The notes under the pieces: model-generated
Databases searched by the model: none
Told to the model about the DNA's origin: nothing
Seen by the model: only the letters and a program-made list of their open reading frames with translations
Translations under genes and position numbers: made by a program
DNA from: an uncultured Gemmatimonadales bacterium
GTDB taxonomy: Bacteria; Gemmatimonadota; Gemmatimonadetes; Longimicrobiales; RSA9
Direction of reading: 5' to 3'
Assembly (NCBI GenBank): GCA_963798845.1
Contig: CAWCUS010000003.1
Span: 96,001 to 160,000 of the forward strand
DNA: 64,000 nt
In this document: positions 17,018 to 60,457 of the stretch, in pieces
How the letters are laid out: every line of letters begins with the position of its first letter
How positions within the stretch are numbered: position 1 is the stretch's first letter

Positions 17018-17830
17018 TCAGACCGTGTAGTCCGGCGCCGCCAGGTTCTCGCGGTCCACCCGCTCGACGCCGGGCACGCTCCCCGCGACCTCGATCACCG
17101 CGTCCACCAGCGACGGAGGCCGCAGCCGGCCCCGCAGGTACACCGCCCCGTCCTGTGCGCGCAGCCGAACCTCGGCGGAGAACGTCCGCTCGTCCGCCGC
17201 CAGCGCCGCCTGCACGCGGCTCGCCAGACCCAGGTCCGCCATTGCCTTCCGGCTCTCGGACGTCGGCTTGAACCGCGGCGACCGCGACGCCAGTACCACC
17301 AGCGCGACCGCGTCCTCCACCTCCAGCGTACGCAGGTTGATGCACAGGTCGTACAGCCGAGGGTCGAGCCAGTCCACGCCGTACAGGAAGCGCGTCCACT
17401 TCTCCCGCTGCCGGTCCAGCTTCTCGATCCGCTCCTCGGCTTCTTCCTCGCTGAGATCCGAGCGCTCCTGCAGCACTCGGTCCCGGAAGTCCGCCGGCGC
17501 GATCAGCCGCACCCGCACGACGTGCGAAATCCCGGGCAGCAGCAGGTGCCCCGCGTTGCCGTGGTACACCAGACGACCCGCCTGCGCGCGCTCCACCAGC
17601 GCCGCCTGCACGTAGGCGATGTACCGCCGCCGCTCGTGCTGCACCCGGTCCCACAGCCGCGGCGGCTCCAGCAGCGCCTTCCGCAGCGCATCCTCCGAGG
17701 CACCGAAGCGCGTCGCTTCATGCACCACTTCCTCACGGCTCACCACCGTATAGCCGAGCTCGGCAGCCACCGCCTCCGCCAGCTCCTGCCCTCCGCTCCC
17801 AGAGCCCCGGGATATCGTAATGATCGACAT
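17018..17830 (-). CDS. Cytidylate-kinase-like family protein with C-terminal BON-like domain
   Basis: MSIITISRGSGSGG, VYHG, VRLIAP and YDLCIN. C-terminal DGAVYLRG...VPGVERV. Confidence 0.8.
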   Translation of the reverse strand: MSIITISRGSGSGGQELAEAVAAELGYTVVSREEVVHEATRFGASEDALRKALLEPPRLWDRVQHERRRYIAYVQAALVERAQAGRLVYHGNAGHLLLPGISHVVRVRLIAPADFRDRVLQERSDLSEEEAEERIEKLDRQREKWTRFLYGVDWLDPRLYDLCINLRTLEVEDAVALVVLASRSPRFKPTSESRKAMADLGLASRVQAALAADERTFSAEVRLRAQDGAVYLRGRLRPPSLVDAVIEVAGSVPGVERVDRENLAAPDYTV

Positions 17831-17929
17831 AGCGCTTCGTTGCCGCGGCCTCCCTGCCGGCCCCCGATCGGGGCCGGGCCAATTCGTTCCTGCGTTCACG
17901 AATCACTGTGGCCGCTGCCGCGCCCCGCG

Positions 17930-18370
17930 TCAAGACGCGGCAGGCGCGGCGGACAGCAGCTTCTCCACGGCGGCCAGGAGCTGGTCGCGGTCGATGGGCT
18001 TGGGGAAGAAGCCGTCCGGCGGCGGGACGGCGTCGCTCTTCCGGATGAACTTTTCATAGCCGTACGGGTCGCCGCCATAGCCGGTGACGGCGGTGATGAT
18101 GACCACGGGAACTCCGCTGAGGGCGGGGTCGTTCTTCACAGTCCGGTAGAAGCGTGTTCCCGAGGCCCTGGGCATGGAGATGTCCAGGGTGACGAGGTCG
18201 GGCTTGTGGCTGCGCAACATCTCCAGCGCCGCCTCGCCGTCGCCGGCGATGAGCGTCTCGTAGCCGGTGTCGCGGAAAAGCATGTCTAGATAGTCGACGA
18301 CATCCTGCTCGTCATCGACGATGAGGATCTTCCTGGCCGGCCCTTGCGCGGCCTGGTCCGGTGCGGGCAT
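17930..18370 (-). CDS. Stand-alone receiver protein (Rrf1-like position downstream of the hmc-like genes)
   Basis: IVDDE, LDISMP, IITA and PKP. Confidence 0.9.
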   Translation of the reverse strand: MPAPDQAAQGPARKILIVDDEQDVVDYLDMLFRDTGYETLIAGDGEAALEMLRSHKPDLVTLDISMPRASGTRFYRTVKNDPALSGVPVVIITAVTGYGGDPYGYEKFIRKSDAVPPPDGFFPKPIDRDQLLAAVEKLLSAAPAAS

Positions 18371-18413
18371 GGCTCGCCTCCTTGCTGCGGTATCCAAGCG
18401 ACCCGGTCCGCCG

Positions 18414-18944
18414 TCAGGCGCCGGGCGTGGTGCGTTTCAGCGCCTCCAGGGCGCGTCTGAGGGCGTGGGGCTCCGCCTGGGTGAGCTGGCGGCGCACCTC
18501 GTCCTGGAGGGTGATGCGATCCTCGTCGCCGGGGCTCTCTTCGAGGCCGAGGGCGCGCTGGACGCAGCGGACGTAGTCCAGCGGCTTGACGGGCTTCTCG
18601 AGGTAGACGCCGGGCCCCGATATGACGCGGCTCTCGACAATGTCCTCGAGCTCGGCGCGTCCGAGCTCATCGCGGGCGTGGGCGGTGACGATGAGGACGG
18701 GGATGCGGGAGAGCGCGTGGTCCTTTCGGAGCTCGTAGAGGAGCTTGTGGCCGCTCTTCCCGGGCATGACGAGGTCGAGGGAAATGAAGTCGGGTGGCTG
18801 CTGGCGGATGAGGTCGAGGGCCTCGTCGCCGTCCGAGGCGGTTCGGACCTGAAATCCTGCGTCCCTCAGGATCTGAGCGAGGTAATCGCGGACGTCCGGC
18901 TCATCATCCACCACCAGCACGGTCCTGTCCTGTGGCCGCTCCAT
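18414..18944 (-). CDS. Receiver protein with short helical C-terminal extension
   Basis: VVDDE, LDLVMP, IVTA and EKP. Confidence 0.9.
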   Translation of the reverse strand: MERPQDRTVLVVDDEPDVRDYLAQILRDAGFQVRTASDGDEALDLIRQQPPDFISLDLVMPGKSGHKLLYELRKDHALSRIPVLIVTAHARDELGRAELEDIVESRVISGPGVYLEKPVKPLDYVRCVQRALGLEESPGDEDRITLQDEVRRQLTQAEPHALRRALEALKRTTPGA

Positions 18945-18948
18945 GGCG

Positions 18949-20088
18949 TCATCCCTTCGTGTGGTTCTGCCCGTCGGCCCCGTCGGCCTGTTCGGCGGCC
19001 GCGGAGGTGGGCAGCGTGTTGCGAGGCAGCTCGATCCGGAACACCGATCCTTCTCCCTCGTGAGAGGTGAAGGAGATCCGACCCCCGTGCTGGTGCACGA
19101 GGCGGCGTGTGGTCAGGAGCCCGAGGCCGGTGCCACGGTCCGAGCCTTTCGTCGTGAAGAACTTGGAAAACACCTTCCGGCTCAGCTCGTAGTCCATGCC
19201 CTTGCCGTTGTCCGCCACCTCGTAGACCAGGACGCCGTCGTTCTCGGAGACGGTCACGCGGACCACGAACTCGCGGTCCTTGTCGGCCACGGTGCACGCG
19301 TCGATGGCGTTGGAAACCAGGTTGGCCAGGGACGTATGGATCCCGGCCTCGTCCAGCAGCGCCGGGGCGATGCCGTCCTGCGGCTCGAAGTCGAGGCGGA
19401 TGCCGGCGCGGGCGGCACCATCGCGGAACAGATCGACAGCGTTCCTCGCCGGCAGTACCGGGTCGGTGAGGGCGACCACGGCGGGGCGTCCCTTGGCGAA
19501 GTCCAGGAACTCCTTCATGAAGGCGGAGATCCGGTTGACGTTCTGCTCCAGGGTGGTCCAGCCGCGGGCGATGCGCTCGTCGTCGCCGAGCTGGATACCG
19601 GTGTTCACGGCATACATGCCGCCTTCCAGGCCCATGAGGATGTTCTTCACCCCGTGGGCGACGCCGGCCACGGTCTCGCCCACGGCGGCGAGGCGCTCGG
19701 CTTCCCGCTTCTCCCGCTCGAGGCGCTTCACGACGGAGATGTCGGTGGACATCTCAATGACGTAGGGGATGTCGCCGTTGGGTCGGACCAGGGGGACCAT
19801 ATGGACCAGGTAGTCGATCTCCCGGCCATTTCCCATCACGCCCTCCTCCTCCTGCTCCCGGATGGAGCCGTCCGCGAAGGTGGCCAGGGCGGCGCACCGA
19901 AGGCAGGGCTCGTCGCGCCCCTTGTAGACCTGGTAGCAGGGCCGCCCCTGCCAGTCCCCGAACTCCGACTCGAAAGCCAGGTTCGCGTCCACGATCCCGT
20001 AATTGCGCCCGATGACGCTGATGGCGACGGGCACCTCGTCGTAGAGGTGCGTGTGGAGCCAGTCCCGGATCTCGTCCGTGTCCATCAT
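18949..20088 (-). CDS. Cytoplasmic PAS histidine kinase
   Basis: PAS domain with CY.VYKGRDEPCLRC. H-box GVAHGVKN, NLVSNA, DNGKGM, FFTTK and GTGLGL. Start ATG 20088. Confidence 0.9.
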   Translation of the reverse strand: MMDTDEIRDWLHTHLYDEVPVAISVIGRNYGIVDANLAFESEFGDWQGRPCYQVYKGRDEPCLRCAALATFADGSIREQEEEGVMGNGREIDYLVHMVPLVRPNGDIPYVIEMSTDISVVKRLEREKREAERLAAVGETVAGVAHGVKNILMGLEGGMYAVNTGIQLGDDERIARGWTTLEQNVNRISAFMKEFLDFAKGRPAVVALTDPVLPARNAVDLFRDGAARAGIRLDFEPQDGIAPALLDEAGIHTSLANLVSNAIDACTVADKDREFVVRVTVSENDGVLVYEVADNGKGMDYELSRKVFSKFFTTKGSDRGTGLGLLTTRRLVHQHGGRISFTSHEGEGSVFRIELPRNTLPTSAAAEQADGADGQNHTKG

Positions 20089-22193
20089 GGCAGCGATCCT
20101 CCTTCCGTGCCGGGCTGCCGCTCGCGCGTGGCGGCGCGTGCCACGTCCGTGGCTGTCGGGCCGGGCGAGCGCAGGGGCGTGGATGCGGCTGTGGTCCGGG
20201 CGGGCTCGAGCTGCTGGAGGGCGCCGGAACGGTCCGCGTCGTGGCACGTTTCGCAGCGTGCCAGATTCTCGGGATGCTCCCCCGGCTCCGAGCGCAGGGC
20301 CTCCTCGTGGCACGCGATGCACACGCCGTGCATGGCGTCCATGTAGCCCGGGGCGGCGCGCCACCGCTCCTGCGCCGCCGGGATGATCGCGCTCTGCCCC
20401 GCGTCGCGAGCGTGGCACTCCATGCACGCCGTCGACGTGGCGTAGGTCCTGGTCGCGATGCCCGGGGCGTGGCACTGCTGGCAGCCGTCGTTCCCTGCCA
20501 GCGCCTCCACGTGCGACGCATGGTCGAAGACGGCGGTGCTGTCGTACATGTCCCGGTGGCACGCGCCACAGCGGCTCGCTTCCTCGAGCGGGAGATTCAG
20601 GTGATGGCAGGTTCCGCAGCCGTCGTCGCCGCCAGCGCGCTCCACGTGGGCGTCGTGGTCGAACAGGACGGCGTTGCGGTCCCGACCCCCATCGATGAGC
20701 AGCAGCACGGCCTCGCCCGGATCCATCATCCCCGGTCCACCCGTGCCGCCAGCCGCCTCCGTTTCACCCGCTCCGCCGGGGACGTTCGATGCCGGCGATA
20801 CCGCGTGCGCGTGCAGCGTCTCGCTCGCGGCGCCGGCCAGCGCCAGCAGCCTCGCCTGCCCCGGCCGCTCCGAAATGGTCCCGGCCACGGAGCGCGCGTC
20901 CGCCACGGGTACCGGGCGCGGGCGCGCCCCCGAAAGCGGAAGGAACAGGAGCGCGATCACGAAGCCGGCGAGCGCCATCCCGCTGTTCAGGTGGGGGCCC
21001 GCGAGGCGCGGCGGGAGGAGCCCGTGCACGGTGGTGGGCTCGAAGCTCCGAGGCCTGGCGCGGACGGTGTCGGCGGAAACGTCGTCGTACACGCGCAGGT
21101 GCTCGACGAAGAAGATGAAGACCAGCATGAACGCCGACACGATCCCGACGCTCACGGCGAGCTCTTCCCAGCTGGGGAAGTACGGCATGTCCGCAGGCCT
21201 CGCGAACGCCACGACGGAAACGTCCAGCCGGTACAGGATCATGCCGGCCACGGTCATGGCGCCCGCCACGCCCACGCCGCGGATGCTGTTCCGGACCCGC
21301 GGGATGGCCATGAGCACCACGGGGATCCCGGCACTGAGGGCGAGCTCGGCCACGAACAGCACCCCGTGCCAGGACGGCTGAAGCGCACTGACCAGCACGC
21401 CGCGGGCCGCCAGGTCGCCCAGCCGCAGGGCCAGGTACAGCGTGAGCACCACGGCCGCCGCGGCGCCCAGGCCGGACATCTGGCGCCGGTGAAGCGCGTG
21501 GCCGAGGAACCGGTGGGCGAACATGGACTCTGTCACCACCATCGACAGACCCAGAGCTACGGCGGAGACGAAGAAGAGCACGTAGATGATCGGCGAGTAC
21601 CAGAGCGGGTGCAGCCGGTAGGGCGTGATCAGGAAGAGGGAGCCCAGCGACGACTGGTGCAGCGTGGAAAGCATGATCCCCAGGATGACCAGCGGGATCG
21701 TCACCTTCCGGAGCGCGGCCAGAGTCGTGCGGAACGGCCGCCAGCGGAAGAGGGGGTGCTCCAGGATCGCGGGAGCGAACTCCAGCGCCAGGACGGTCAG
21801 GTAGAGCATGACGCACATGGCGACTTCGAACAGCACGGAGTGGTGCTGCCAGTGGAACAGCGGGTGCCAGATGCGCCAGGGGAGACCGAGGTCGTAGAGG
21901 AGCCCCACCGCCACGGCCGCGTAGCCGAGGAACGCCGTGAGCACCGCGGGGCGCGCGAAGGCGTGGTAGCGCTCCAGGTGGAAGATGTACACGGTGGCGG
22001 CCATGACGAACCCGCCAGCCGCCAGCGCAACGCCGGACATGACGTCGAAGCCGATCCAGAGGCCCCACGGGGTCGCGTCGGACAGGTGGGTCACCGCCCC
22101 GAGCCCCCGGGTGTAGCGCACCATGCTGACGGCGACGAGCACGCCGACCAGCGTCCACAATACCAGCTTCAGCCGCACCAGCCGCTCACGCAT
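20085..22193 (-). CDS. HmcC/HybB (NrfD-type) membrane subunit fused to a C-terminal multiheme cytochrome c (6 CxxCH)
   Basis: PWGLWIGFDV..GVALAAGGF, DLGLPWRI, SVLFEV and STLHQSSLG. Then CGTCH, CGACH, CQQCH, CMECH, CIACH and CETCH, with c3-like FDH..H motifs. Confidence 0.88.
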   Translation of the reverse strand: MRERLVRLKLVLWTLVGVLVAVSMVRYTRGLGAVTHLSDATPWGLWIGFDVMSGVALAAGGFVMAATVYIFHLERYHAFARPAVLTAFLGYAAVAVGLLYDLGLPWRIWHPLFHWQHHSVLFEVAMCVMLYLTVLALEFAPAILEHPLFRWRPFRTTLAALRKVTIPLVILGIMLSTLHQSSLGSLFLITPYRLHPLWYSPIIYVLFFVSAVALGLSMVVTESMFAHRFLGHALHRRQMSGLGAAAAVVLTLYLALRLGDLAARGVLVSALQPSWHGVLFVAELALSAGIPVVLMAIPRVRNSIRGVGVAGAMTVAGMILYRLDVSVVAFARPADMPYFPSWEELAVSVGIVSAFMLVFIFFVEHLRVYDDVSADTVRARPRSFEPTTVHGLLPPRLAGPHLNSGMALAGFVIALLFLPLSGARPRPVPVADARSVAGTISERPGQARLLALAGAASETLHAHAVSPASNVPGGAGETEAAGGTGGPGMMDPGEAVLLLIDGGRDRNAVLFDHDAHVERAGGDDGCGTCHHLNLPLEEASRCGACHRDMYDSTAVFDHASHVEALAGNDGCQQCHAPGIATRTYATSTACMECHARDAGQSAIIPAAQERWRAAPGYMDAMHGVCIACHEEALRSEPGEHPENLARCETCHDADRSGALQQLEPARTTAASTPLRSPGPTATDVARAATRERQPGTEGGSLP

Positions 22194-23076
22194 TGGGACC
22201 TCCATCGGTCTCTGGCGACGGGGGCGACGCCGGCGCACCGCCGCGATCCACCTCGGTCGCGTCCTCCGCTCCCACCTCCGCCACGCCGACCGGGTCGACT
22301 CCGGCCACCGGGATGCCCGCCGCCGTCGCGTCCATGGCCAGACGCATGCGCCGCTGGATTACCCAGTAGATCCCCGTCATCAGCGTCCCCATGCCCAGGA
22401 ACACACCGGGCACCTTGTCGAGGGAAGCCCAGGAGAGGAGCGGCAGGGAGCCATCGCCCACGTGCCCTCCCCAACCGAGGAAGCCCAGCGACGCGTCCGA
22501 GATGTAGAGCACCGAGGTGCCGCCCACTTCCGTCTCGCCCCACACGTGGTCGAGGTAGCGGTGCGGATGCGCGGCGACCCGGGCGTGTGCTTCCCGCAGC
22601 AGGTCGTCGCGGGTGCCGAAGAGCAGCGCCTCCTCGGGGCACGCCTCCACACACGCCGGCTGCTTCCCTTCCTTCAGTCGCGGATAGCACATCTCGCACT
22701 TCCGCACGTACGGCACTGCCTCGTCCCAGTCGTAGCGCGGGATGCCGTACGGGCATGCCACCATGCAGTAGCGGCAGCCTATGCAGAGGGAGGAGTCATA
22801 GAGCACCGGCCCTTCCGGCGACTTCTGCATGGCCCCCACGAGGCACGCGCTCACGCACGCCGGCTCGAGGCAGTGACGGCACTGCTGCTTGACGTACAGG
22901 TCACCCGGACGTCGAAGCACGGTGGAGAAGCGGCGGGCGGAAAGGTCGTCCACCGCCTGCTGCCCGGGCCCCATGCCGTCCGGCGGAAGATCGTTCACGT
23001 CCTTGCACGCCAGCACGCACGACTCGCAGCCGACGCAACGTGTGGTGTCCACCAGAATGGCAGGCGAGCGGATCAT
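22186..23076 (-). CDS. HmcB/HybA-like 4x[4Fe-4S] protein with C-terminal TM helix
   Basis: CVGCESCVLAC, CRHCLEPACVSAC, CIGCRYCMVACP and KCEMC...PACVEACP. Confidence 0.88.
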   Translation of the reverse strand: MIRSPAILVDTTRCVGCESCVLACKDVNDLPPDGMGPGQQAVDDLSARRFSTVLRRPGDLYVKQQCRHCLEPACVSACLVGAMQKSPEGPVLYDSSLCIGCRYCMVACPYGIPRYDWDEAVPYVRKCEMCYPRLKEGKQPACVEACPEEALLFGTRDDLLREAHARVAAHPHRYLDHVWGETEVGGTSVLYISDASLGFLGWGGHVGDGSLPLLSWASLDKVPGVFLGMGTLMTGIYWVIQRRMRLAMDATAAGIPVAGVDPVGVAEVGAEDATEVDRGGAPASPPSPETDGGPNA

Positions 23077-23774
23077 ATCGGTTCACCCTCCTTCCCCAGC
23101 GCTGCGGCGACGCGGGTCCCGGCATCCGGGGGCCAGTGCCAGGCCGCTTCGGACACCAGCTGGGCCAGGGGCAGCAGGAGCATGTGGCTGAGCTTGCTGA
23201 GCGGGACGAGCAGGAAGAGCAGGTCCCCGGCGAGCACGTGAGCGAGAAAGACCGGCTGGAACGCGAAGGGGTTCCAGGCGGGGTGCATGGTCATGAAGCC
23301 TGTGACGAACGTGACGCCGATCATGACCGGGAGCGCATAGTCCTGGAAGCGCCCCAGCGCGCGGGCGGCTCGGATCGTCGCCCGCTGGATGATGACGGCG
23401 AGGGCGGCGAGCACCACGGCCACGGTGAGAGCCGTGGCCACGGCGTTCGGCAGTGCGGGCCAGGACAGGCCGATGGCCCGGTCCCAGAGCGCGATGTGGC
23501 CGGCCAGGAAGAGCGGCACGAGGATCACCGCCACATGAAAGACCATGGTGGTGACGCTGTACGGCCACCGCCGCAACAGCCGGCGGGCGGGGAAGAGCCA
23601 GCCGGCCGTGGTCGCCGCCACCTTGCGGACGGGGAGGTTCTTGTCACCTGCCAGGCGACGCACACGGGCCAGCTCCCACGCCACCAGGGCGAGCTCCCGG
23701 AGCAGCCCCAGGACCATGAACGCCAGCGCCGCCCAGAAGAGCGGACCGCGGGCCCAGCTCAGCCATTCCTGCAT
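23073..23774 (-). CDS. HmcE/NarI-like heme b membrane subunit
   Basis: ARGPLF, FHV..ILVPLFLAGHI, AHVLAG and PLSKLSH. Confidence 0.82.
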   Translation of the reverse strand: MQEWLSWARGPLFWAALAFMVLGLLRELALVAWELARVRRLAGDKNLPVRKVAATTAGWLFPARRLLRRWPYSVTTMVFHVAVILVPLFLAGHIALWDRAIGLSWPALPNAVATALTVAVVLAALAVIIQRATIRAARALGRFQDYALPVMIGVTFVTGFMTMHPAWNPFAFQPVFLAHVLAGDLLFLLVPLSKLSHMLLLPLAQLVSEAAWHWPPDAGTRVAAALGKEGEPI

Positions 23775-23777
23775 GGG

Positions 23778-25166
23778 TCAGCCCTCCCCGTTGCCGTGGC
23801 CGTTGCCGTCGCGGCCGCCGAAGTCGATGACGCGGAGCAGGAGGTCGTGCAGACCCACCACCTCCACCTCGTCCAGGCCGTTGTCCTGGCACAGCTCCCG
23901 GAGCTGCTTCTTGCAGTTGGCGCACGGCGCCACCACGTACTTCGCACCCGTCTCCCGGATCTGGTCCGCCTTGCGCTTGCCCAGCGGCCCCGTGCGGAAG
24001 GCCCGGATCTCGTCGATGGAGACGGTCCCGCCCCCACCACCGCAGCAGTAGTTTCGGGTCCGGTTTGGCGTCATCTCGGCGTAGTCCGCGCAGATCGCGG
24101 CAAGGATCTCCCGCGGCTGCTCCGTGATGCGCCCCACCCGGGCGATGTTGCAGGGGTCGTGATAGGTGACCCGCTCCAGGATCTTCTCGTCCTTCAGCGG
24201 GATCCTGCCGGCTTCCAGCTGCTGGTGCGTGTACTCCATGCAGTTCACCACCTGCGGCGCGTCCGGCCCGCAGAAGGTCGGGACGAACCAGGCCGAGCGG
24301 GTGGCGTGGCCGCACTCCCCGACCATGATCTTCTTCGCCCCCAGCCGCTCCGCCTCCGCCACCACGTTCCGGACGATGCGCTCCATTATCCGGTCGCTGT
24401 AGAACAGGCCGTAGTTGATCCCGTCGTAGTTGTGCGTCCCGATGGTCCAGGAGCCCCCGGTGACATGCATCACGGCCGCGTTCCCCATGAGCGTGTCCGC
24501 TTCCATGATGAAGTCGGAGACGGCGGGGAAGAACGCGAACTCGGCCCCCTCCACGTCGAACGGGTACTTCACGTCCACACCGTAGATGTCGTGGAGCTCC
24601 TCCTCCAGGAACTCGCACGTGTCCTTCAGCGCCGGGAGCGGAATCGCCGACGTGTTCCCCGTCTTTCCGTCCAGCTGCTCGCGCACGGACACGAGCAGGG
24701 CTCGCGGGATGATCCCCACCTCGGCCAGGACCCAGCGCGCCAGGTGCGTGACCAGCCCGTGGTCCAGCCCCATGGGGCAGCTGTCCTTGCACCGGCGGCA
24801 CGCCGTGCAGCGATAGTAGTCCTCCGCCATCCGGTCGATGTACTCGTCCGTGAGCGTGAAGCCACCCCCCAGGCGCGCCTTCAGGATCCCCCACGACGTG
24901 AAGTAGCGGCGGTACACCCGCAGCAGCAGCTCCGAGCGCTCGCAAGGGATGTCACGGTCCTCGCCCGTCGCCTCGTAGAGCTGGCACTCCGCCGCGCACC
25001 GACCGCAACGGGCACTCAACCGCGCGTAAGTCTCCAGCGCCACCTGGTAGCTCCCGTGCTCCAGGATCGCCGAGAACGCCTCAAGGAACCGCCGCGGACG
25101 CTCCGTCAGCCCCAGCGCCCGCTGCTCCACGTGATAGCTGTACTTCGTCGGTGTCGGCACCTTCAC
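23778..25166 (-). CDS. HmcF/HdrD-like (Fe-S)-binding CCG-domain protein
   Basis: SARCGRCAAEC, CTACRRCKDSCP, GECGH, YHDPC, YCCGGGGG and PCANC. GTG start with GGAG RBS. Confidence 0.85.
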   Translation of the reverse strand: MKVPTPTKYSYHVEQRALGLTERPRRFLEAFSAILEHGSYQVALETYARLSARCGRCAAECQLYEATGEDRDIPCERSELLLRVYRRYFTSWGILKARLGGGFTLTDEYIDRMAEDYYRCTACRRCKDSCPMGLDHGLVTHLARWVLAEVGIIPRALLVSVREQLDGKTGNTSAIPLPALKDTCEFLEEELHDIYGVDVKYPFDVEGAEFAFFPAVSDFIMEADTLMGNAAVMHVTGGSWTIGTHNYDGINYGLFYSDRIMERIVRNVVAEAERLGAKKIMVGECGHATRSAWFVPTFCGPDAPQVVNCMEYTHQQLEAGRIPLKDEKILERVTYHDPCNIARVGRITEQPREILAAICADYAEMTPNRTRNYCCGGGGGTVSIDEIRAFRTGPLGKRKADQIRETGAKYVVAPCANCKKQLRELCQDNGLDEVEVVGLHDLLLRVIDFGGRDGNGHGNGEG

Positions 25167-25181
25167 CGCTCCATGATCGGG

Positions 25182-27092: not shown

Positions 27093-27196
27093 CGGCGCCT
27101 CCCCGGCCGCTACGGCCCCCGCTCCCCGCTCCACCTCCGACTCGGTCCCCGTTGCCGGCGCGAATCGCCAGGCCGCGCCGGCGGGGTGCCCGCCGC

Positions 27197-53400: not shown

Positions 53401-54054
53401 ATGGCGATCATCACCATCTCGCGTGGATCTCTCAGCGGTGGCCGAATCGTGGCAGAGTGCCTTGCCGAGCACCTGGGCTACCCGTGCGTGGCCCACGAAG
53501 TCCTGCGCGGCGCCGCCCGGCGGCTGGGGCTCGCGGAAGACGTGGTCCGCGAGAAGTTCGAGACCCCTCCTCGCCTCTGGTCGCGGCTGAGCCGCGACCG
53601 GGAGGTCTACCTGCTGGCCGTCAAAACGGCCCTCGCCGACAAGTGCCTGGACGGCTGCCTGGTGTACCACGGCCCCGCTGGACAGTTCTTCCTCGCCGGG
53701 GTCCCCTGCGTGCTCTCCGTCCGGCTGATCGCTCCGCTGCAGCAGCGGGTGCGGGCGCTGACCGGCCCGCATCACCGGCTCACGCGCAAAGCCGCCCTCG
53801 AGTTCATCGAGAACGTGGACGAGGAGCGGCGGCGCTGGGCGCGGTTGATGTTCGGGGCGGACGTCGAGGATCCGTCGCTGTACGACCTCACGGTGAACCA
53901 GCGCTTCCTCTCGGTGGAGACCGCGTGCGTCGCGGTCGCCGAGGCCGCGGGTCAGCCGGAGTTTCAGGTCACCGACGAGGCGCTCTCCGAGCTCACTTCG
54001 TTCGCGGCATCGTGTCACGACCGGCTGGACGCTCTCCTGGACGGAGAGGAGTGA
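53401..54054 (+). CDS. Cytidylate-kinase-like family protein
   Basis: MAIITISRGSLSGG, VYHG, VRLIAP and YDLTVN. Confidence 0.8.
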   Translation: MAIITISRGSLSGGRIVAECLAEHLGYPCVAHEVLRGAARRLGLAEDVVREKFETPPRLWSRLSRDREVYLLAVKTALADKCLDGCLVYHGPAGQFFLAGVPCVLSVRLIAPLQQRVRALTGPHHRLTRKAALEFIENVDEERRRWARLMFGADVEDPSLYDLTVNQRFLSVETACVAVAEAAGQPEFQVTDEALSELTSFAASCHDRLDALLDGEE

Positions 54055-54057: not shown

Positions 54058-54876
54058 ATGGCCATCATCGCCATCTGCCGGGGCAGCAAGAGCGGTGGGG
54101 GGGCCATGGCCCGCTGCCTGGCGGACGGCCTCGGCTATCCGATCCTCGGGCGGGAGATCGTGCAGGACGCCGCCGCAGAGCTGGGGGTGCCGGCGCAGCT
54201 GCTGGAGCAGCGGATGGACGCCCGTCCCACGCTCTGGAGCCGGTTCTCGAGCCTGAGGCGGACGTACATGGTGGCCGTACAGGCCGCGATGGCGGAGTAC
54301 GTGGTGGAGGGCGATCTGGTCTACCACGGGCTGGCGGGAGGTCTCCTGCTGCGCGGACTTCCGGCCACGCTGTCGCTGCGCCTGATCGCGCCCCTGGAGT
54401 ACAGGAAGCGGGCGGTCGTCGCGGCATCCGAAATGGATGACGCCATGGCCGAGGCCTACGTCCGGGAGCTGGACGAGACGCGTGGGCAATGGGTGAAGGT
54501 GATGTACGGAGAGGACATCGCCGATCCGAGGCTTTTCGACATGGTGGTGAGCCTGGGCAAGCTGACCATCGAGGGGGCGTGCGCAGTGGTGGTGAAGACC
54601 ATCCAGCGTCCCGAGTACCAGATCACCGAGGAGGTCCGGGCGCGGCTGATGGACTTCCGGTCCGCCTGCCGGGTGAAGCTCGCCCTGGTTCGTGACAGCG
54701 AGCTGAGCGGGCTGGACCTGGACGCCGCCGTGGAGGACGGCGCGGTGGTGATCACCGGAGAAGCACCGCTGCTGAAGGGTGGACGGACGGGGAACCGCAT
54801 CGTGGAGCTGGCCCGCTCGGTCCCGGGCGTGGACGAGGTCCGGCTCAAGGTGGAGTGGTTCGACCCTTACCCGTAG
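54058..54876 (+). CDS. Cytidylate-kinase-like family protein with BON-like domain
   Basis: MAIIAICRGSKSGG, VYHG and LRLIAP. C-terminal DGAVVITG...VPGVDEV. Confidence 0.8.
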   Translation: MAIIAICRGSKSGGGAMARCLADGLGYPILGREIVQDAAAELGVPAQLLEQRMDARPTLWSRFSSLRRTYMVAVQAAMAEYVVEGDLVYHGLAGGLLLRGLPATLSLRLIAPLEYRKRAVVAASEMDDAMAEAYVRELDETRGQWVKVMYGEDIADPRLFDMVVSLGKLTIEGACAVVVKTIQRPEYQITEEVRARLMDFRSACRVKLALVRDSELSGLDLDAAVEDGAVVITGEAPLLKGGRTGNRIVELARSVPGVDEVRLKVEWFDPYP

Positions 54877-54934
54877 GCGAACAATGTTCCGGCCCGTCCG
54901 CCGCAGGAGCGGCGAGCGGCCAGGAGTGAGCGAT

Positions 54935-55933
54935 ATGTCGTACCAGCGCTACGTTTGCGCCGCAGGGAGCGTCATTCCGGTCACGCTCGCGCTCCTGCTC
55001 TGTGCCGTTGCGCCCGTGGTCGCACAGCACGCGGCGCAGGACGCCACGGAGCTCGCCGCCATGCAGGCTGCGGTGAGCGAGCACGCCTGGTGGTTCTGGC
55101 CGGCCGTGCTGTTCGGGATGACGTTCGTCATGGGCATACTGGCGGCAGTGGCCGGCGTGGGCGGCGGCGTGCTCTTCGTCCCCATCGTCAGCGGCTTCTG
55201 CCCGTTCCACCTGGACTTCGTGCGCGGCACCGGTCTGCTGGTGGCGATGTCCGGTGCGCTGGCGGCGGGCCCCGGTTTCCTGCGCATGAATCTGGCCAGC
55301 CTGCGCCTGGCCATGCCCGTGGCGCTCATCGCCTCCGCGTGCGCCATAGCGGGCGCCATGGTGGGGCTGGCACTCCCAACCAACGTGGTCCAGACTGCGC
55401 TGGGGGCGTCCATTCTCGGCATCGTGGTGATCATGATCCGGGCGAAGAAGTCCGCATTCCCCGTGGTGGCGCGTGCGGACCGGCTGTCCACGGCGCTGGG
55501 CATCTCGGGCGTCTACATGGAGGCAAGCCTCGGGCGCGAAGTGGACTGGAAGATCCATCGCACGCTGCCGGGGCTGATCCTGTTCATCGCCATCGGCTTC
55601 ATGGCCGGCATGTTCGGCCTGGGCGCGGGGTGGGCCAACGTCCCCGTGCTGAACCTGCTGCTGGGCGCGCCGCTCAAGGTGAGCGTGGCCACCAGCAAGT
55701 TCCTCCTGTCCATCACAGACACGTCCGCCGCCTGGATCTACCTGAACCAGGGGTGCGTCATCCCCCTGCTCGTGGTTCCCTCTCTCGTCGGGATCATGCT
55801 CGGGTCCTTCGTGGGCGTGCGCGTGCTCAAGGTGGCGAAGCCGGCTTTCGTTCGCTGGATGGTCATCGCGCTCCTGATCTTCTCGGGAGCAAAGGCGATG
55901 ACGAAGGGTCTCGGACTTCCGTTCTTCTTCTGA
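54935..55933 (+). CDS. TauE/SafE family transporter
   Basis: AGVGGGVLFVP, GLGAGWANVP and VATSKF. Start ATG 54935 after AGGAG. Confidence 0.88.
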   Translation: MSYQRYVCAAGSVIPVTLALLLCAVAPVVAQHAAQDATELAAMQAAVSEHAWWFWPAVLFGMTFVMGILAAVAGVGGGVLFVPIVSGFCPFHLDFVRGTGLLVAMSGALAAGPGFLRMNLASLRLAMPVALIASACAIAGAMVGLALPTNVVQTALGASILGIVVIMIRAKKSAFPVVARADRLSTALGISGVYMEASLGREVDWKIHRTLPGLILFIAIGFMAGMFGLGAGWANVPVLNLLLGAPLKVSVATSKFLLSITDTSAAWIYLNQGCVIPLLVVPSLVGIMLGSFVGVRVLKVAKPAFVRWMVIALLIFSGAKAMTKGLGLPFFF

Positions 55934-55958
55934 CCCGGGACAAGCGGGAGGTGCAGCG

Positions 55959-56408
55959 ATGAGCGAACCGACACGGAGCGCCCGGCCGAGCGAAGAGCAG
56001 CGCCTCTACGCCACGATCCTGGCCGCCGGCATGTACACGGGGCTGGCGCTGCTGCTGATCACCTTCGCCCTCTACATCTTCGGCGTGATCGAGCCGGCCG
56101 TGCCGGTGGACCGGCTGGAGACGTACTGGACGCTGAGCGTGGACCGCTTCAACGAAGTGATCAACGCGGAGTACCTGCACCGCGACCACGCGCTGAGCGG
56201 CTGGTGGTGGCTGTCGGCGCTGGGACGGGGCGACTACCTGAACCTCGTCGGTATCGCCGTCCTCTCCGGCGTGACGGTGCTCTGCTTCATCGGCATCATC
56301 CCGGTCCTCATCCGGAAGCGGGACTGGGTCTACGCCGCCATCGCGGTCGTCGAGGTGCTGATCCTCGTGCTGGCGGCCAGCGGCATCCTGGCCGTGGGCG
56401 GGCACTGA
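55959..56408 (+). CDS. DUF1634-like membrane protein (TauE partner)
   Basis: Three TM segments, EQ..YA, GW.WL...GDYLN..GIA.L and C-terminal LAASGIL..GH. Confidence 0.75.
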   Translation: MSEPTRSARPSEEQRLYATILAAGMYTGLALLLITFALYIFGVIEPAVPVDRLETYWTLSVDRFNEVINAEYLHRDHALSGWWWLSALGRGDYLNLVGIAVLSGVTVLCFIGIIPVLIRKRDWVYAAIAVVEVLILVLAASGILAVGGH

Positions 56409-57253
56409 TGCGCTTCCTCCCCGTCGGCCTGGACCTGCGCGACCGGCCCTGCGTGGTGGTGGGCGGCGGCGCCGTGGGGACGCGCAAGGCGCGCACCCTG
56501 GCCCGGGTGGGTGCCCGTGTCACCATCGTCTCTCCGGAGATCGGCGAGGAGCTGGCGGGCGACGTGAAAGCCGGGCGGATCCGCTGGCTACGCGAGCCGT
56601 TCCGCCCCGAGCACCTCGAAGGCGCGCGCGTGGCGGTGCTGGCGACGGACGACGCGGCGCTGAACGCGCGCGCGGCACGGGAGGCGTCGGCCCGGGGGAT
56701 CCTGGCGTGCGATGCCTCCTCGGCCGACGGAACGGAGCTGATCTTCGGCGCGCTCGTGGAGCACGATGGCGTCACTCTGGGCGCGTTCACGGACGGGCGC
56801 GATCCCGCCCGGGCGAGGCGGATCCGGGACGCCGTGGCGCTCTGGCTGGGCGCGCCGCGGCCGAACGGCTCGCCATCCGCGCCCACCGACGCACTGCTGG
56901 TGCTGGCGGCGCACGGTAGCCGGGACCCCGCGTGGGGCCGACCCCTGGAAGCGCTGGCGGAGGCGCTGCGCAAGCGCACCGGCGACCAGCGCGTGCGCCT
57001 CGCATACGTGCAGTTCGCATCCCCTTCCCTGGAGGACGTGGTGGCGGACGCCGCCCGCTCCGGCATCCGGCGCGTCCGCGTGCTGCCGCTGTTCATGACG
57101 GCGGAAGGGCACGTGGAGCGCGACATCCGACCGGCGGTGGATGCGCTCCGCCGGATCCATGCAGAGATCGAGGTGACGCTGCTCCCACCCGTGGGACAGC
57201 TCCCTTCGTTTGAACGGCTTCTGGCCGATATCGCTTTGGAGGCAACCCGATGA
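56408..57253 (+). CDS. Precorrin-2 dehydrogenase (SirC/CysG-N) fused to a CbiX/SirB-type chelatase
   Basis: VVGGGAVGTRK and ATDD..LN, then AHGSRDP and PLFM..GHVERDI. Confidence 0.85.
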   Translation: MRFLPVGLDLRDRPCVVVGGGAVGTRKARTLARVGARVTIVSPEIGEELAGDVKAGRIRWLREPFRPEHLEGARVAVLATDDAALNARAAREASARGILACDASSADGTELIFGALVEHDGVTLGAFTDGRDPARARRIRDAVALWLGAPRPNGSPSAPTDALLVLAAHGSRDPAWGRPLEALAEALRKRTGDQRVRLAYVQFASPSLEDVVADAARSGIRRVRVLPLFMTAEGHVERDIRPAVDALRRIHAEIEVTLLPPVGQLPSFERLLADIALEATR

Positions 57254-57287
57254 GTCCTGTCCTCGACCCCCGGCTCCGGAGGAACGC

Positions 57288-58844
57288 ATGATCACCCCGG
57301 CGCGCCCGAAACCCGGAACGGTGTACCTCGTCGGAGCGGGCCCGGGGCATCCAGGGCTGCTCACGCTGCGAGCGGTGGAGTGCCTGAAGAAGGCCGACCT
57401 GGTCATGTACGACTATCTGGCCAACGCCTCCCTGGTGGAGCACGCCAGGCCGGACGCGGAGCTGATGCGGCTCGGCCACCACAACGGCGGTCCCCGCCTC
57501 TCCCCCGCCGAGATCATCGCGCTCATGGTGAAGGAAGCGGCCGCGGGGAAGTGCGTGGTGCGGCTGAAGGGAGGCGACCCGAGCATTTTCGCCCGGGGCG
57601 GCGACGAGGCGACGGCATTGCGCGAGGCCGGCCTTCCCTTCGAGATCGTCCCCGGCATCACCTCCGGGCTGGCGCTGGCGGCGTTCGCCGAGATCCCGCT
57701 CACGCACTTCGAGGACGCATCGGCCGTGGCGCTGGTGACCGGACGGGAGCGGGATGCCAAGCTGGCCAACGACGACTGTCACCTCGACTACGCCGGGCTG
57801 GCCGCTTTCCCGGGCACGCTCGTGTTCTACATGGCGGTAAAGGGGACGCAGTCGTGGAGCAGTGCGCTGATGGCCGAGGGGAAGTCACCGGACACGCCAG
57901 TGGCGATCGTGCGCTGGTGCAGCAGGGCCTGGCAACAGACCGTGCGCTGCACGCTGGGCACCGTGGCGGAGGTGGTGGAAAGCACGGGACTCCGTCCACC
58001 CGCGCTGTTCGTCGTGGGGAAGGTGGTGGCGCGCACGCCTCGCCTGAGCTGGTTCGAGTCGCGCCCGCTGTTCGGCTCGACGGTCCTGGTGGCGGGGTCC
58101 GCCAGCACGGCGGGCCGCCTGCGCGAGCGGCTGGCGGAGGCGGGAGCGGAGGTGATCACGCAGCCGGCGATCCGGATCACGCCACCTGAGACATGGGTGC
58201 CGGTGGACGACACACTGGGGCGCATCGCGACGTACGACTGGCTGGTGCTCTCGACGCCCAACGCCGTGGACTCGCTCCTCGACCACATCGACGCGCGGGG
58301 CGGCGACGCGCGCTGGCTGGGCGGAGTGAAGATCGTGGCGCTGGGCTCGGGGACGGTCGATCGCCTCACGGCGCACCGGCTGAAGCCGGACCTGACCCCC
58401 GAAGGCTACCGCCCCGCCATCCTGGCCCGCACGCTGACTCAAACCGGCGCGGGGCGCGTCCTTCTGGCCCGCTCGCACGGCGAGCGACCGATCTTGGCGG
58501 CCGAGCTCGAGAAAGCGGGTGCGACGGTGGGTGAGATCGTCGTCTACGGGACGGCGGAAGTGCTGGAGCCGGACCCGGACGTCGCGATGTCGCTGGTGGA
58601 GGAGGAGATCGACTGGGTGGCCGTGACCAGCCCGGCCACCGCCCGATCGCTGGACCGTTTGTACGGGAGCGCCCTGCGCACTGCGCGCATCGCCTCCATC
58701 AGCCCGCTCACGTCGGCAGCGCTGCGCGAGCTCGGGCTGGAGCCGGACGTGGAAGCCGCCCCGGCCACGGTGGCCGGGCTCGTGGACGCCATAGCCGCGG
58801 CGGTCCCCCGCCTTGCCGTGGCCGAGACCGCGGGAGTTCCGTAA
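57288..58844 (+). CDS. cobA: Uroporphyrinogen-III C-methyltransferase/synthase fusion (CobA-HemD)
   Basis: VYLVGAGPG, RLKGGDP and VPGITS. HemD motifs LSTPNAV, VTSPAT and SISPLTS. Confidence 0.92.
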   Translation: MITPARPKPGTVYLVGAGPGHPGLLTLRAVECLKKADLVMYDYLANASLVEHARPDAELMRLGHHNGGPRLSPAEIIALMVKEAAAGKCVVRLKGGDPSIFARGGDEATALREAGLPFEIVPGITSGLALAAFAEIPLTHFEDASAVALVTGRERDAKLANDDCHLDYAGLAAFPGTLVFYMAVKGTQSWSSALMAEGKSPDTPVAIVRWCSRAWQQTVRCTLGTVAEVVESTGLRPPALFVVGKVVARTPRLSWFESRPLFGSTVLVAGSASTAGRLRERLAEAGAEVITQPAIRITPPETWVPVDDTLGRIATYDWLVLSTPNAVDSLLDHIDARGGDARWLGGVKIVALGSGTVDRLTAHRLKPDLTPEGYRPAILARTLTQTGAGRVLLARSHGERPILAAELEKAGATVGEIVVYGTAEVLEPDPDVAMSLVEEEIDWVAVTSPATARSLDRLYGSALRTARIASISPLTSAALRELGLEPDVEAAPATVAGLVDAIAAAVPRLAVAETAGVP

Positions 58845-60457
58845 TGCAGATCGTCTGCGTATCCAGGGGCTCGCTGTCAGCGGGCCGGGAGCTGGCCGAC
58901 AATCTCGCCGCCAAGCTCGGCTACCCGGTTCTGAGCCGGGAGAAGCTGATCGAGGAGGCGACGCACGAGGGCATCCAGGTGGGGAAGCTCGAGACCGCCA
59001 TGATGAACCCGCGTGCGTTCACCGAGCGGCTCGCGAGGGAGCGGGATCACTATCTCGCCTTCTGCACGTCGTACCTGTGCGACCGCCTGGAGGAAGGGCC
59101 GCTGGTCTACCATGGCCGGACGGGTCACCTCCTGCTGAGAGGGATCAGCCACGTGCTGCGGGTGCGGGTCGTGGCGGACGAGGAATACCGGATCGCGAGC
59201 GTGATGCGCGAGCTCGGGCTGGAGCGGGAGAAGGCCCGGGCGTACCTGAAGGCGGTGGAAGAGGACCGTCGCAACTGGACGCGTGCGATGTACGGCGCCT
59301 CTTCCGAGGAGGCGGAGCAGTACGACGTGGTGGTGAACATCGAGCGCATGAGCGTGGGGAACGCCGCTGCGTCGCTGGTGGACATGTGCCAGCTCCCGGA
59401 CTTCCAGGCGACGCCGGCATCCCGCCGGGCGATGGAGGACCTGCGGGTCTCGGCACGAGCCCGTCTGCTCCTGGCCCGCGACCCGCGCACCAACCGCTTC
59501 GGCTTCTCGGTCGGCACGCACGACGGCGTCCTGACCGTCACCTTCCTTCCGCACGACGCCGAGGTCGCCCCTCACATCGAGCCCGTGCTCCAGCCGCTGG
59601 CGGGCGTGGACGAGATCCGGGCGACCATGGCTGCCACGACCATCCTGTGGGTGCAGGAGGCGTTCGATCCGGCCTCCGACACCTTCAGGGACGTGGTGGA
59701 GATCGCGGGCAAGTGGAACGCGGCCGTCGAGCTGGTTCGCTACACGGCCGACGCCGCGGGGCGAGGAGGCCACGGCCCGGGAGCCGCCGCACCGGTGCGG
59801 GAAGCCGTGGCGGCGGGCGGGGTGGTGGACTCTGCGGCCACGGCCGCAACCGCGGCGGGAGCGGGCGGCGCGGGAGCGGCGACGATCGTCGCGCCGCCGA
59901 TCATCGCGGCAGCCCCCGGCGGAATCGAGGAGGACGTGGACGAAGAGCCCGCCGTGGACGAAGGGCTCAAGGCCACGTTGGACGCGCTGGCGCGGCTCGG
60001 TCGCGCGGGCGGTGCCCGCCACGTCCGCGGCTCCCGGGGAAGCCTGATCGCGTCGTGCTGCGGAGGGGTTCCGCACTCGATGGTGGTGCTGGGCGAGCTG
60101 TTCCTGGGCAGCCCGCACGCCGCGAGGCTGCGGCTGACGCGCGAGCTGCGCGGCTCCATCTCGGACCGGGTCAAGGTGCCGGTCGTGACGACGGACGAGC
60201 TGCGCACGCAGTACCTGTTCGGTCACCGTGACCTGTTCCGGCTCCTGGGGTGGGTCGCAGTCGTGCTCGCGCTTTACGTGGTGGCCTTCACCCACCAGCC
60301 GGCCATGCTCCGCTTCCTGGCGAGCGGGGGCGACGCGCTCAGCGGGACCGTGGGAAGGCTGCTGGTCTCAGCGGCCGTGTTCGTGTTCGTGCCCATCGTC
60401 GCCTTCTCCTACGGGACGGTGGCGCGGCTGCTCATGAAGCTGATCCGGATGGAGTAG
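58844..60457 (+). CDS. Multidomain cytidylate-kinase-like / BON-like / USP-like protein with two C-terminal TM helices
   Basis: VSRGSLSAG, VYHG and YDVVVN. DGVLTV..GVDEI. USP-like ILW...AVELV...MVVLG...VPVVT. Two hydrophobic helices at the C terminus. Confidence 0.75.
   Translation: MQIVCVSRGSLSAGRELADNLAAKLGYPVLSREKLIEEATHEGIQVGKLETAMMNPRAFTERLARERDHYLAFCTSYLCDRLEEGPLVYHGRTGHLLLRGISHVLRVRVVADEEYRIASVMRELGLEREKARAYLKAVEEDRRNWTRAMYGASSEEAEQYDVVVNIERMSVGNAAASLVDMCQLPDFQATPASRRAMEDLRVSARARLLLARDPRTNRFGFSVGTHDGVLTVTFLPHDAEVAPHIEPVLQPLAGVDEIRATMAATTILWVQEAFDPASDTFRDVVEIAGKWNAAVELVRYTADAAGRGGHGPGAAAPVREAVAAGGVVDSAATAATAAGAGGAGAATIVAPPIIAAAPGGIEEDVDEEPAVDEGLKATLDALARLGRAGGARHVRGSRGSLIASCCGGVPHSMVVLGELFLGSPHAARLRLTRELRGSISDRVKVPVVTTDELRTQYLFGHRDLFRLLGWVAVVLALYVVAFTHQPAMLRFLASGGDALSGTVGRLLVSAAVFVFVPIVAFSYGTVARLLMKLIRME

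Follow-up and report, generated by a model that had tools for sequence, protein, structure and literature searches.

Four cytidylate-kinase-like proteins, which we call CK1 to CK4, are encoded in and around a dissimilatory sulfur island of an uncultured Gemmatimonadales bacterium, in a 64,000-nucleotide stretch of its DNA (GenBank assembly GCA_963798845.1, contig CAWCUS010000003.1, positions 96,001 to 160,000 of the forward strand; hereafter the window). A sequence-only reading of the window had proposed that they form a family of nucleotide-binding pseudo-kinases that serve as accessory subunits of transporters or membrane complexes. We found that the four proteins share a kinase-like domain without the Walker A lysine, that genes for TauE-type permeases stand beside the family far more often than a rough chance rate predicts, and that the family tracks dsrAB across genomes. 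The explanation that we prefer, at a probability of about 0.45, is that the CK proteins are non-catalytic nucleotide- or anion-binding regulators at the membrane, which would control the TSUP permeases of dsr/apr/sat islands and would be wired to two-component systems and to a PPDK_N-type dikinase.

Family membership, fold and the P-loop

The four genes are as follows.

17018-17830, minus strand: CK1, 270 residues, PF13189 domain (132.3 bits) and BON domain
53401-54054, plus strand: CK2, 217 residues, PF13189 domain (111.7 bits) only, with a 26-residue tail; follows dsrN
54058-54876, plus strand: CK3, 272 residues, PF13189 domain (100.4 bits) and BON-like domain; directly upstream of TauE_b
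58844-60457, plus strand: CK4, 537 residues, PF13189 domain (107 bits), BON-like domain, conserved middle region and low-complexity linker; directly upstream of TauE_c

All four open reading frames (ORFs) are free of stops over these coordinates. Each passes the cut-off of PF13189 (Cytidylate_kin2, 28 bits) and covers profile positions 1 to 173-175 of 176, and CK2, CK3 and CK4 are 40, 38 and 36% identical to CK1 in the alignment, which makes the four ORFs paralogues, as had been supposed. The 4.26 Mb genome holds five PF13189 matches. The four in the window are the only strong ones, and the fifth (31 bits) is a canonical cmk gene on another contig (C5:141269-141913).

The AlphaFold2 model of CK3, our only confident model (pLDDT 90.4, pTM 0.86), matched best two solved PF13189 proteins, namely 3hdt, a 'putative kinase' of Clostridium symbiosum (Z 20.4, 1.9 Å over 164 residues), and 3fdi of Eubacterium ventriosum (Z 17.6). 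Foldseek agreed, with E values of 4.5e-9 for 3hdt and 2.8e-10 for 3fdi. The next matches were CMP kinases (Z 16-12), followed by dephospho-CoA, shikimate, adenylate, gluconate and adenosine 5'-phosphosulfate (APS) kinases (Z 12-10). When the subfamily profile was compared with solved chains at E values up to 1, only 3fdi and 3hdt were found. These two proteins belong to the same family and fold as the CK proteins and have a similar loop, with an Arg after the first strand and S-G-G replacing G-K-[ST], but they consist of one domain of about 200 residues, with neither BON domain nor membrane anchor. CMP kinase (Cmk) has the nucleoside-monophosphate-kinase fold in common with the CK proteins (Z 12-16), whereas the CK proteins do not reach the curated cut-offs and are missing both the lysine and the serine of Walker A. 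APS kinase (CysC) and the kinase domain of 3'-phospho-APS (PAPS) synthase belong to the same P-loop fold class (Z ~10: 1x6v, 2gks, 4rfv) and provide a link to sulfur nucleotides; they are much more distant from the CK proteins than Cmk or PF13189, and the CK proteins have neither the Walker lysine nor a sequence match to them.

The P-loop reads SRGSGSGG in CK1, SRGSLSGG in CK2, CRGSKSGG in CK3 and SRGSLSAG in CK4. LVYHG is common to all four, and a further motif appears as YDLCIN, YDLTVN, FDMVVS and YDVVVN (CK1 to CK4), so that the RGSxS(G/A)G, VYHG and (Y/F)Dxxx(N/S) motifs given in the sequence-only reading were all seen in the alignment. All four proteins have Gly at position 14, followed at positions 15 and 16 by Q and E in CK1, R and I in CK2, G and A in CK3, and R and E in CK4. 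In a gapless register Arg8 stands at the first Walker glycine and Gly14 at the lysine site, and in a shifted register the lysine site is position 15; in neither register does any of the four have the Walker A lysine, just as the same reading had claimed. Two observations favour the gapless register, namely the HMMER match to TIGR02173 and the positions of strand 3-8 and helix 14-25 in the CK3 model. Profile comparison with the Cmk of this genome gave only a weak match over 55 columns (probability 0.7, E 0.076), which leaves the register ambiguous and residue-level statements about the nucleoside-monophosphate site unsupported. At the same loop, 3fdi and 3hdt read R-E-[YF]-G-S-G-G. The lysine loss is thus real in the cluster but not specific to it, being a trait of PF13189 as a whole under the gapless register.

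Among 105 relatives, position 15 is K in 49 and otherwise Q, R, E, M, I, A or L. Position 16 of the 105 CK domains is E in 34, A in 28 and T in 5, and Ser is absent from its eight commonest residues. Strongly kept residues are R8 (93 of the 105), G9 (94), S10 (95), G14 (99), R32 (104), R108 (101), R116 (98), D139 (97), R142 (94), W145 (103) and D161 (all 105), and Y89-H90-G91 is also strongly conserved. The arginines are kept and the Mg-ligand hydroxyl is lost, so that an arginine-rich pocket is conserved without its Mg-binding residue. In our reading such a pocket would still bind a phosphorylated or anionic ligand but would not be built for Mg-ATP catalysis.

The kinase-like domain starts at residue 1, has no signal peptide and is of cytoplasmic type. 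Three of the four proteins had been said to carry a BON-like domain, and this holds at the level of homology. CK1 scores 32.7 bits against Pfam PF04972 (cut-off 27), and its BON region also matches OsmY (8rjx) and YraP (7a2d) by sequence. CK3 stays under the cut-off at 23.2 bits, and its residues 191-268 form a helix-strand-strand-helix-strand unit in the AlphaFold2 model. CK4 has no Pfam BON match; its single-sequence model had a mean pLDDT of 39.8, so we used profile comparison, in which CK4 residues 1-261 aligned with CK3 residues 1-264 over 262 columns with a probability of 100% (hhalign, orthologue profiles). CK2 has no BON-like region, its sequence ending 26 residues past the kinase-like domain. 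CK4 has two C-terminal hydrophobic segments, at 464-482 and 503-521. Its conserved region at about 370-455 resembles, by eye only, a Usp-type segment.

Association with dsrAB and with TauE genes

We searched the same samples of 251 Gemmatimonadota, 301 Acidobacteriota and 301 Desulfobacterota genomes with a 32-row profile of the kinase-like domain and with TIGR02064, the dsrA model. In Acidobacteriota, at a threshold of E 1e-40 fixed beforehand, the family was found in 30 of 36 dsr-positive genomes and in none of the 265 dsr-negative ones, so that all 30 genomes with a CK gene are dsr-positive. In Gemmatimonadota, where we counted as positive a genome with dsrA, or with dsrB at a contig edge, CK genes scoring at least 160 bits occurred in 7 of 8 dsr-positive and 5 of 243 dsr-negative genomes (12 in all), a cut chosen post hoc after a two-tier distribution of scores had appeared. 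At E 1e-20, 35 of the 251 genomes matched, comprising all 8 dsr-positive genomes and 27 of the 243 others; matches in the weak tier (75-100 bits, single copy) represent a different subfamily of PF13189. Genomes with strong matches held 2-5 copies in the 7 dsr-positive cases and 1-2 in the dsr-negative ones. In Desulfobacterota the family occurred in 64 of 156 dsr-positive and 11 of 145 dsr-negative genomes (75 in all). Phylogenetic profiling against dsrAB, which the sequence-only reading had put forward as a check, thus shows that the family tracks dsr, and the enrichment is strong.

Ten CK-bearing genomes were also checked singly. dsrA was present in those from Acidobacteriota, Desulfobacterales, Polyangiaceae, Binatia, Omnitrophota and Bacteroidetes, was not detected in those from Actinomycetes, Thermoleophilia and Chloroflexota, and gave only a partial match (104 bits) in a Dehalococcoidia genome. 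Copies without a detected dsrA occur in several phyla, and the family is not confined to sulfur respirers.

The window encodes three TSUP permeases, all of which pass the gathering cut-off of PF01925 (TauE/SafE, 32.6 bits).

11766-12692, plus strand: TauE_a (169.2 bits), preceded by a histidine kinase gene (10207-11742)
54935-55933, plus strand: TauE_b (119.4 bits), start at 54935 or 54884
60462-61562, plus strand: TauE_c (124 bits)

The distance from the end of CK3 to the start of TauE_b is 8-59 nucleotides (nt), and from the end of CK4 to TauE_c it is 5 nt. The statement that three of the CK genes sit just upstream of a TauE gene is therefore right for CK3 and CK4 directly, and for CK2 as the head of a CK2-CK3-TauE_b run. 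CK1 has no TauE gene beside it, TauE_a being 4326 nt away. The genome has seven TauE genes. The chance that a gene picked at random has a TauE gene within 5 kb is about 0.018. For 400 nt the rate is roughly 0.004, computed from the TauE count and size of this genome and not from related loci.

Related loci were collected by a pattern-plus-tblastn scan with one genome per species, and the best 78 loci of at least 587 relatives were chosen regardless of context. ORFs in these loci were labelled by BLASTP against the window proteins, and all neighbourhood counts come from the 78 loci; many of these are short contig ends, so that the counts are lower bounds. TauE genes were found in 37 of the 78 loci, dsr/apr/sat/qmo genes in 23, relatives of the dikinase in 23 and a response regulator or histidine kinase in 24. 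A TauE gene lay within 400 nt of 27 of the 105 CK ORFs (26 on the same strand), against the rough chance rate of 0.004, and within 5 kb of 49; enrichment near TauE, the absence of which was to count against the family's supposed role, was thus observed. The CK gene was upstream in 20 of 28 adjacent same-strand pairs.

Several gene orders recur. The order dsrN-CK2-CK3-TauE_b was found again in another genome (G059, locus L088), and in Acidobacteriota the order was Sat, TauE_b, TauE_b, CK3, TauE_b, CK3, SirC/CbiX, CysG/HemD. TauE_b is very conserved, with homologues 71-95% identical. Six of the 251 Gemmatimonadota genomes, all dsrA-positive, have an orthologue of it, each with at least 545 bits and each 300-450 nt past a CK pair. 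The order CK4-TauE_c-response regulator-histidine kinase recurs in L089, and in L087 with an extra CK gene and an extra response regulator gene before the histidine kinase; CK4 also stands beside TauE_c in L004 and L005. Two further recurrent orders were CK1, TauE_a, Alph_Pro_TM (at times repeated), two dikinases and a CK4-like gene, and histidine kinase, TauE_a, Alph_Pro_TM, dikinase, two response regulators and CK1. The module of histidine kinase, TauE_a, Alph_Pro_TM, dikinase, response regulator and CK1 is conserved in L001, L003, L004 and L014. Two-component genes and the PPDK_N-type dikinase, to which the sequence-only reading had made no reference, therefore belong to the conserved neighbourhood of the CK genes. 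In two actinobacterial genomes without dsrA, a CK/BON gene (L040:8651-10810, L052:8678-10810) starts 4 nt after a gene of the major facilitator superfamily, indicating that the partner of the family can also be a secondary transporter of another class.

Trees of the kinase-like domain were built with FastTree and with a quick search in IQ-TREE, two long-branch rows being dropped from the latter. The CK1 clade (7 rows, SH-aLRT 98) spans four phyla, Gemmatimonadota, Eiseniibacteriota, Myxococcota and Acidobacteriota, and each member stands beside a receiver gene. In the CK4 clade (SH-aLRT 96), all five full-length members (window, L089, L004, L087 and L005) adjoin a TauE_c-type gene. CK2 and CK3 fall inside a clade of 28 rows (99) whose neighbours are mostly TauE genes. 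The clades of the paralogues thus extend over several phyla and retain their partners, TauE_c in the case of CK4 and receivers in that of CK1. A separate clade (SH-aLRT 98), mostly in Desulfobacterota, consists of degenerate CK paralogues in which the R-G-S loop is replaced, for example by S-S-E-D or S-S-D-S. These stand in tandem with an intact CK gene and precede a response regulator-histidine kinase pair, and the tandem pairs suggest a heterodimer of intact and degenerate CK proteins.

L051:10840-11664 and L087:11192-12016, with further examples in L049, L054, L058, L062, L064, L068 and L073: degenerate CK paralogues

A profile search of 1.84 billion representatives found 700 proteins at E 1e-30, 5612 at 1e-10 and 11134 at 0.001. 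We scanned 25 long or odd-length proteins out of the best 150 representatives for fused domains and found CBS in 6, BON in 3, a receiver domain (REC) in 2 and Usp in 1. In the remaining scanned representatives PF13189 was the only domain, and most of these are CK4-like, with about 500 residues. None of the 25 had an enzyme domain, and the fusion partners REC, CBS and Usp are regulatory. A separate homologue search for longer forms gave a single match, of 500 residues.

P0253, P0373, P0288, P0325, P0331, P0357, P0377, P0392 and P0370: CK proteins fused to REC, CBS or Usp domains

The sulfur island and other neighbours in the window

The window has a G+C content of 68.3%, and the closest homologues of its proteins among the matches listed carry Gemmatimonadota names. 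Parts of the window were found in 3 DNA sequencing runs of one study, and no RNA run was listed. A full dissimilatory sulfur island lies within it, with gene names assigned from Pfam domains and gene order.

30980-53387, plus strand, first part: aprBA, a CxxCxxCC protein, qmoAB(C), sat, OsmC, dsrC, dsrT (recognised by its RsbRD_N domain) and dsrMKJOP
30980-53387, plus strand, last part: dsrAB, a dsrD-like ORF, dsrL and dsrN
50273-51949, plus strand: DsrL-like gene, downstream of the dsrD-like ORF
56204-58844, plus strand: SirC/CbiX and CysG/HemD proteins by Pfam (dsrV- and dsrW-like sirohaem genes), between TauE_b and CK4

The ORF of 83 residues at 49883-50134 (plus strand), between dsrB and the DsrL-like gene, has the look of a DsrD. 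It stands beside the DsrL-like gene, so that the island would combine DsrD, by this presumed likeness, with DsrL. Such a combination is reported for peat Acidobacteria (PMC6018796), and the names dsrV and dsrWa are used here as in the supplement of that paper. The ORF in the qmoC position (38748-39695, plus strand) has no significant Pfam match, the best being Nitrate_red_gam at E 0.07, and is kept after qmoB in many loci at 33-40% identity.

After dsrN, the genes run CK2, CK3, TauE_b, small membrane protein, SirC/CbiX, CysG/HemD, CK4, TauE_c, response regulator and histidine kinase. Upstream of the island are two convergent units. The plus-strand unit consists of a histidine kinase, TauE_a, Alph_Pro_TM, a 994-residue PPDK_N protein and a single-domain receiver, and the minus-strand unit of a histidine kinase, two response regulators and CK1.

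12698-13582, plus strand: Alph_Pro_TM membrane protein (PF09608, 140.2 bits), partner of TauE_a, start approximate
13590-16574, plus strand: dikinase-type protein by Pfam, with PPDK_N ATP-grasp domain, PEP-utilizers swivel domain, about 300 Pfam-less residues and a receiver domain
16615-16992, plus strand: single-domain response regulator by Pfam, convergent with CK1 and conserved beside CK1 orthologues
17930-20562, minus strand: PAS histidine kinase (18949-20562) and two response regulators (18414-18944 and 17930-18397) by Pfam, upstream of CK1 in the same run
55959-56408, plus strand: small membrane protein after TauE_b, weak DUF1634 match (18.7 bits against a cut-off of 27.5)
61627-63786, plus strand: response regulator (61627-62232) and HAMP histidine kinase (62242-63786) downstream of TauE_c, conserved in L089, L087, L014 and Desulfobacterota loci

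The pair of TauE_a and Alph_Pro_TM recurs in many loci and is at times duplicated. In the dikinase-type protein about 127 N-terminal residues are also Pfam-less and the swivel domain carries a His; the TIM-barrel domain for phosphoenolpyruvate and pyruvate found in true PpsA or PPDK is absent. Its relatives are often tandem pairs of about 850 residues (for example among L006, L034, L023 and L003), and a receiver domain was absent from 6 of 7 relatives scanned with Pfam, the L003 copy having one. A membrane complex of Hme/Dsr type is encoded at 20085-25532 (minus strand). Its NrfD-type subunit is fused to a class III multihaem cytochrome c domain, and its other members are a 4Fe-4S protein, a protein like nitrate reductase gamma and an HdrD-like CCG protein; a NifX-like (Nitro_FeMo-Co) protein follows. 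The block is also found ahead of sat in several Acidobacteriota loci. A sigma-54 activator with a PAS domain is encoded at 25716-28274. The genome also encodes SulP and DASS carriers. A DASS gene (Na_sulph_symp, 175.7 bits; C3:164428-165732), 4.4 kb past the end of the window, is another candidate sulfate carrier.

Proposed mechanism, rival explanations and significance

In the mechanism that we propose, the degenerate nucleoside-monophosphate-kinase fold of the CK proteins would retain the binding of a phosphorylated or anionic ligand. Candidates are an adenine nucleotide, APS or pyrophosphate (PPi), which are plausible since ATP is converted to AMP and PPi when sulfate is activated. CK1 and CK3 would be tethered to the cytoplasmic face of the membrane by their BON-like domain and CK4 by its C-terminal hydrophobic hairpin, and CK2 may act through pairing with CK3. 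The proteins would then tune the adjacent TauE/TSUP permeases, which would carry a sulfur oxyanion (sulfate in or sulfite out), and would cooperate with the neighbouring histidine kinases, single-domain receivers and PPDK_N-type dikinase. Contact with TauE and the direction of the regulation are, like the transported substrate, matters that we infer. Work on other systems lends parts of this mechanism some precedent. The second BON domain of DolP binds anionic phospholipid (PMC7806268). A TauE homologue rescued the growth of E. coli lacking cysA, which its authors read as sulfate uptake (PMC11535334), and in some sulfate reducers TSUP genes are the sole candidate sulfate carriers (PMC5840216). 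The TauE arrays after sat in Acidobacteriota fit uptake, and the family name derives from sulfite export.

A wider version of this proposal is doubtful. CK/BON proteins, TauE permeases, dikinase and two-component systems could together make up one so far undescribed control system for the flux of sulfur oxyanions, a near-obligatory accessory of dsr/apr/sat islands with both DsrL and DsrD in Acidobacteriota, Gemmatimonadota, Binatia and related lineages. In this system the degenerate kinase fold would sense the state of adenylates, APS or PPi that results from sulfate activation, and would gate the entry of sulfate or the exit of sulfite to match.

Several observations weigh against the explanation that we prefer. 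The usual order in Desulfobacterota is intact CK, degenerate CK, response regulator and histidine kinase, with no TauE gene within 10 kb, and this arrangement may mean that the core role is in signalling rather than in transport. At E 1e-40 or better, CK genes are absent from 92 of the 156 dsr-positive Desulfobacterota genomes, so that the family is not needed for sulfate respiration in general. In the five dsr-less Gemmatimonadota genomes the CK/BON gene lies between an aminotransferase and a DEAD-box helicase or in another unrelated context. A search of these five genomes for aprA gave no match, but neither did any control genome, and the result is uninformative. Of 12 loci taken from the 11 Desulfobacterota genomes without dsr, a single one had the module of CK4, TauE_c, dikinase and response regulator, and the other 11 had unrelated housekeeping genes (GlpX, YebC, aminotransferase and P-type ATPase among others). 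The dsr-less copies are thus mostly without a transporter neighbour, which argues against an obligate role as a transporter subunit. The Fisher p-values for the association of CK with dsr range from 5e-10 to 1e-35 and overstate it, since related genomes are not independent. The SulP and DASS carriers of the genome mean that the TauE proteins need not import sulfate. Lysine at position 15 in about half of the relatives would be the Walker lysine if the register shifts, which makes catalysis possible for those. The DolP authors hold that BON domains are not generalist lipid binders (PMC7806268).

The main rival explanation, which overlaps with the permease-regulator explanation and does not exclude it, is that the CK/BON proteins are signalling adaptors, that is, outputs or modulators of the adjacent two-component systems (for example, partners of single-domain receivers or histidine kinases) that control the expression or activity of sulfur-respiration genes, the TauE genes being merely co-regulated neighbours. 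CK1 closes a histidine kinase-response regulator-response regulator-CK operon, the Desulfobacterota arrangement lacks TauE, the CK domain is fused to a receiver in 2 of the 25 scanned representatives, and the dikinase bears a receiver domain in the window and in L003. Linkage to response regulators or histidine kinases (24 of the 78 loci) is, however, about as frequent as direct same-strand adjacency to TauE (27 of 105 copies), the CK2-CK3-TauE_b run has no signalling gene alongside in the window or in the Acidobacteriota arrays, and the CK proteins have no DNA-binding or known output domain. We consider this explanation rather unlikely, and unlikelier still that the CK proteins are atypical but active kinases or phosphotransferases of adenylate or sulfonucleotide metabolism. 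Such enzymes would recycle AMP and PPi in sulfate activation, acting on AMP, APS or PPi from Sat and Apr, perhaps with the PPDK_N-type dikinases. The kinase fold is kept with five conserved arginines and an invariant aspartate, K15 occurs in 49 of the 105 relatives, APS kinases share the fold class (Z ~10), dikinase relatives are present in 23 of the 78 loci and CK genes are linked to sat and apr genes, all of which would suit an enzyme. On the other hand, the four proteins of the window lack the lysine whichever register is used, the free variation at position 15 (K, Q, R, E, M, I, A, L) is unlike that of a catalytic site, the Mg-ligand position has neither Ser nor Thr, the fusion partners are sensory and not enzymes, and paralogues with R-G-S replaced are kept in tandem with intact ones, as expected of regulatory pairs.

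CK2 and CK3 have dsrN on one side and the SirC/CbiX and CysG/HemD genes on the other, and for this reason the proteins could be accessories of the supply of sirohaem or sirohaem amide. The order dsrN, CK2, CK3, TauE_b, SirC/CbiX, CysG/HemD is found in the window and in G059 (L088), and the order from CK3 onward in seven Acidobacteriota loci (L022, L028, L029, L031, L035, L048 and L053). Nevertheless, the constant neighbour in those arrays is TauE, CK1, CK4 and most relatives are not beside tetrapyrrole genes, and the fold gives no hint of tetrapyrrole chemistry, which makes a role in cofactor supply very improbable. That the CK proteins are ordinary (d)CMP kinases in extra copies is hardly credible. 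The Pfam family name and the fold shared with CMP kinases (Z 16) speak for it; yet the four proteins score 35.9, 33.2, 27.2 and 12.7 bits against TIGR02173, far below its cut-off of 102.1, have no Walker lysine or serine, and yield a subfamily profile that finds no solved CMP kinase at E values up to 1. A genome-wide search with TIGR00017 matched only the canonical cmk gene on contig C5 (186 bits, cut-off 135.6), whose loop is GPAGSGKST.

Small nucleotide-sensing regulators encoded beside secondary transporters include GlnK with AmtB and SbtB with SbtA. By functional comparison only, the CK proteins would resemble them as cytoplasmic ligand-binding proteins next to a permease, whose gating would follow the metabolic state. 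The logic of CK and TauE would then be of a known kind, a trans-acting sensor beside a permease. GlnK and SbtB have the PII-like fold, whereas the CK proteins are kinase-like with BON, and membership of the CK proteins in the PII-like group appears implausible given the kinase-like fold predicted for CK3. OsmY and DolP are comparable in that the C-terminal domain of CK1 matches BON by sequence; they differ in being periplasmic with two BON domains, whereas the CK proteins have a single BON-like unit after a cytoplasmic-type domain and no signal peptide. In a literature search we found no paper that assigns a function to PF13189 or describes a CK-TauE module. The legend of Fig. 2 in Hausmann et al. 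2018 (PMC6018796) names 'syntenic genes 1-4', conserved but of unknown function, in acidobacterial dsr clusters, in words from which their identity with CK or TauE cannot be told.

How sulfate enters and sulfite leaves the cell is unknown in the newly recognised dsrAB lineages, such as soil and peat Acidobacteriota, Gemmatimonadota and Binatia, and the TSUP/TauE permeases are among the least understood of the abundant transporter families. The CK family is a strong candidate for a missing accessory of dissimilatory sulfur metabolism and a practical marker for annotating dsr islands. It also gives an experimental handle on PF13189, a family with two orphan crystal structures and no role assigned in the literature that we found. 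If the CK proteins are indeed kinase-like ligand sensors that gate a permease, they would add a new fold to the few trans-acting regulators of transporters.

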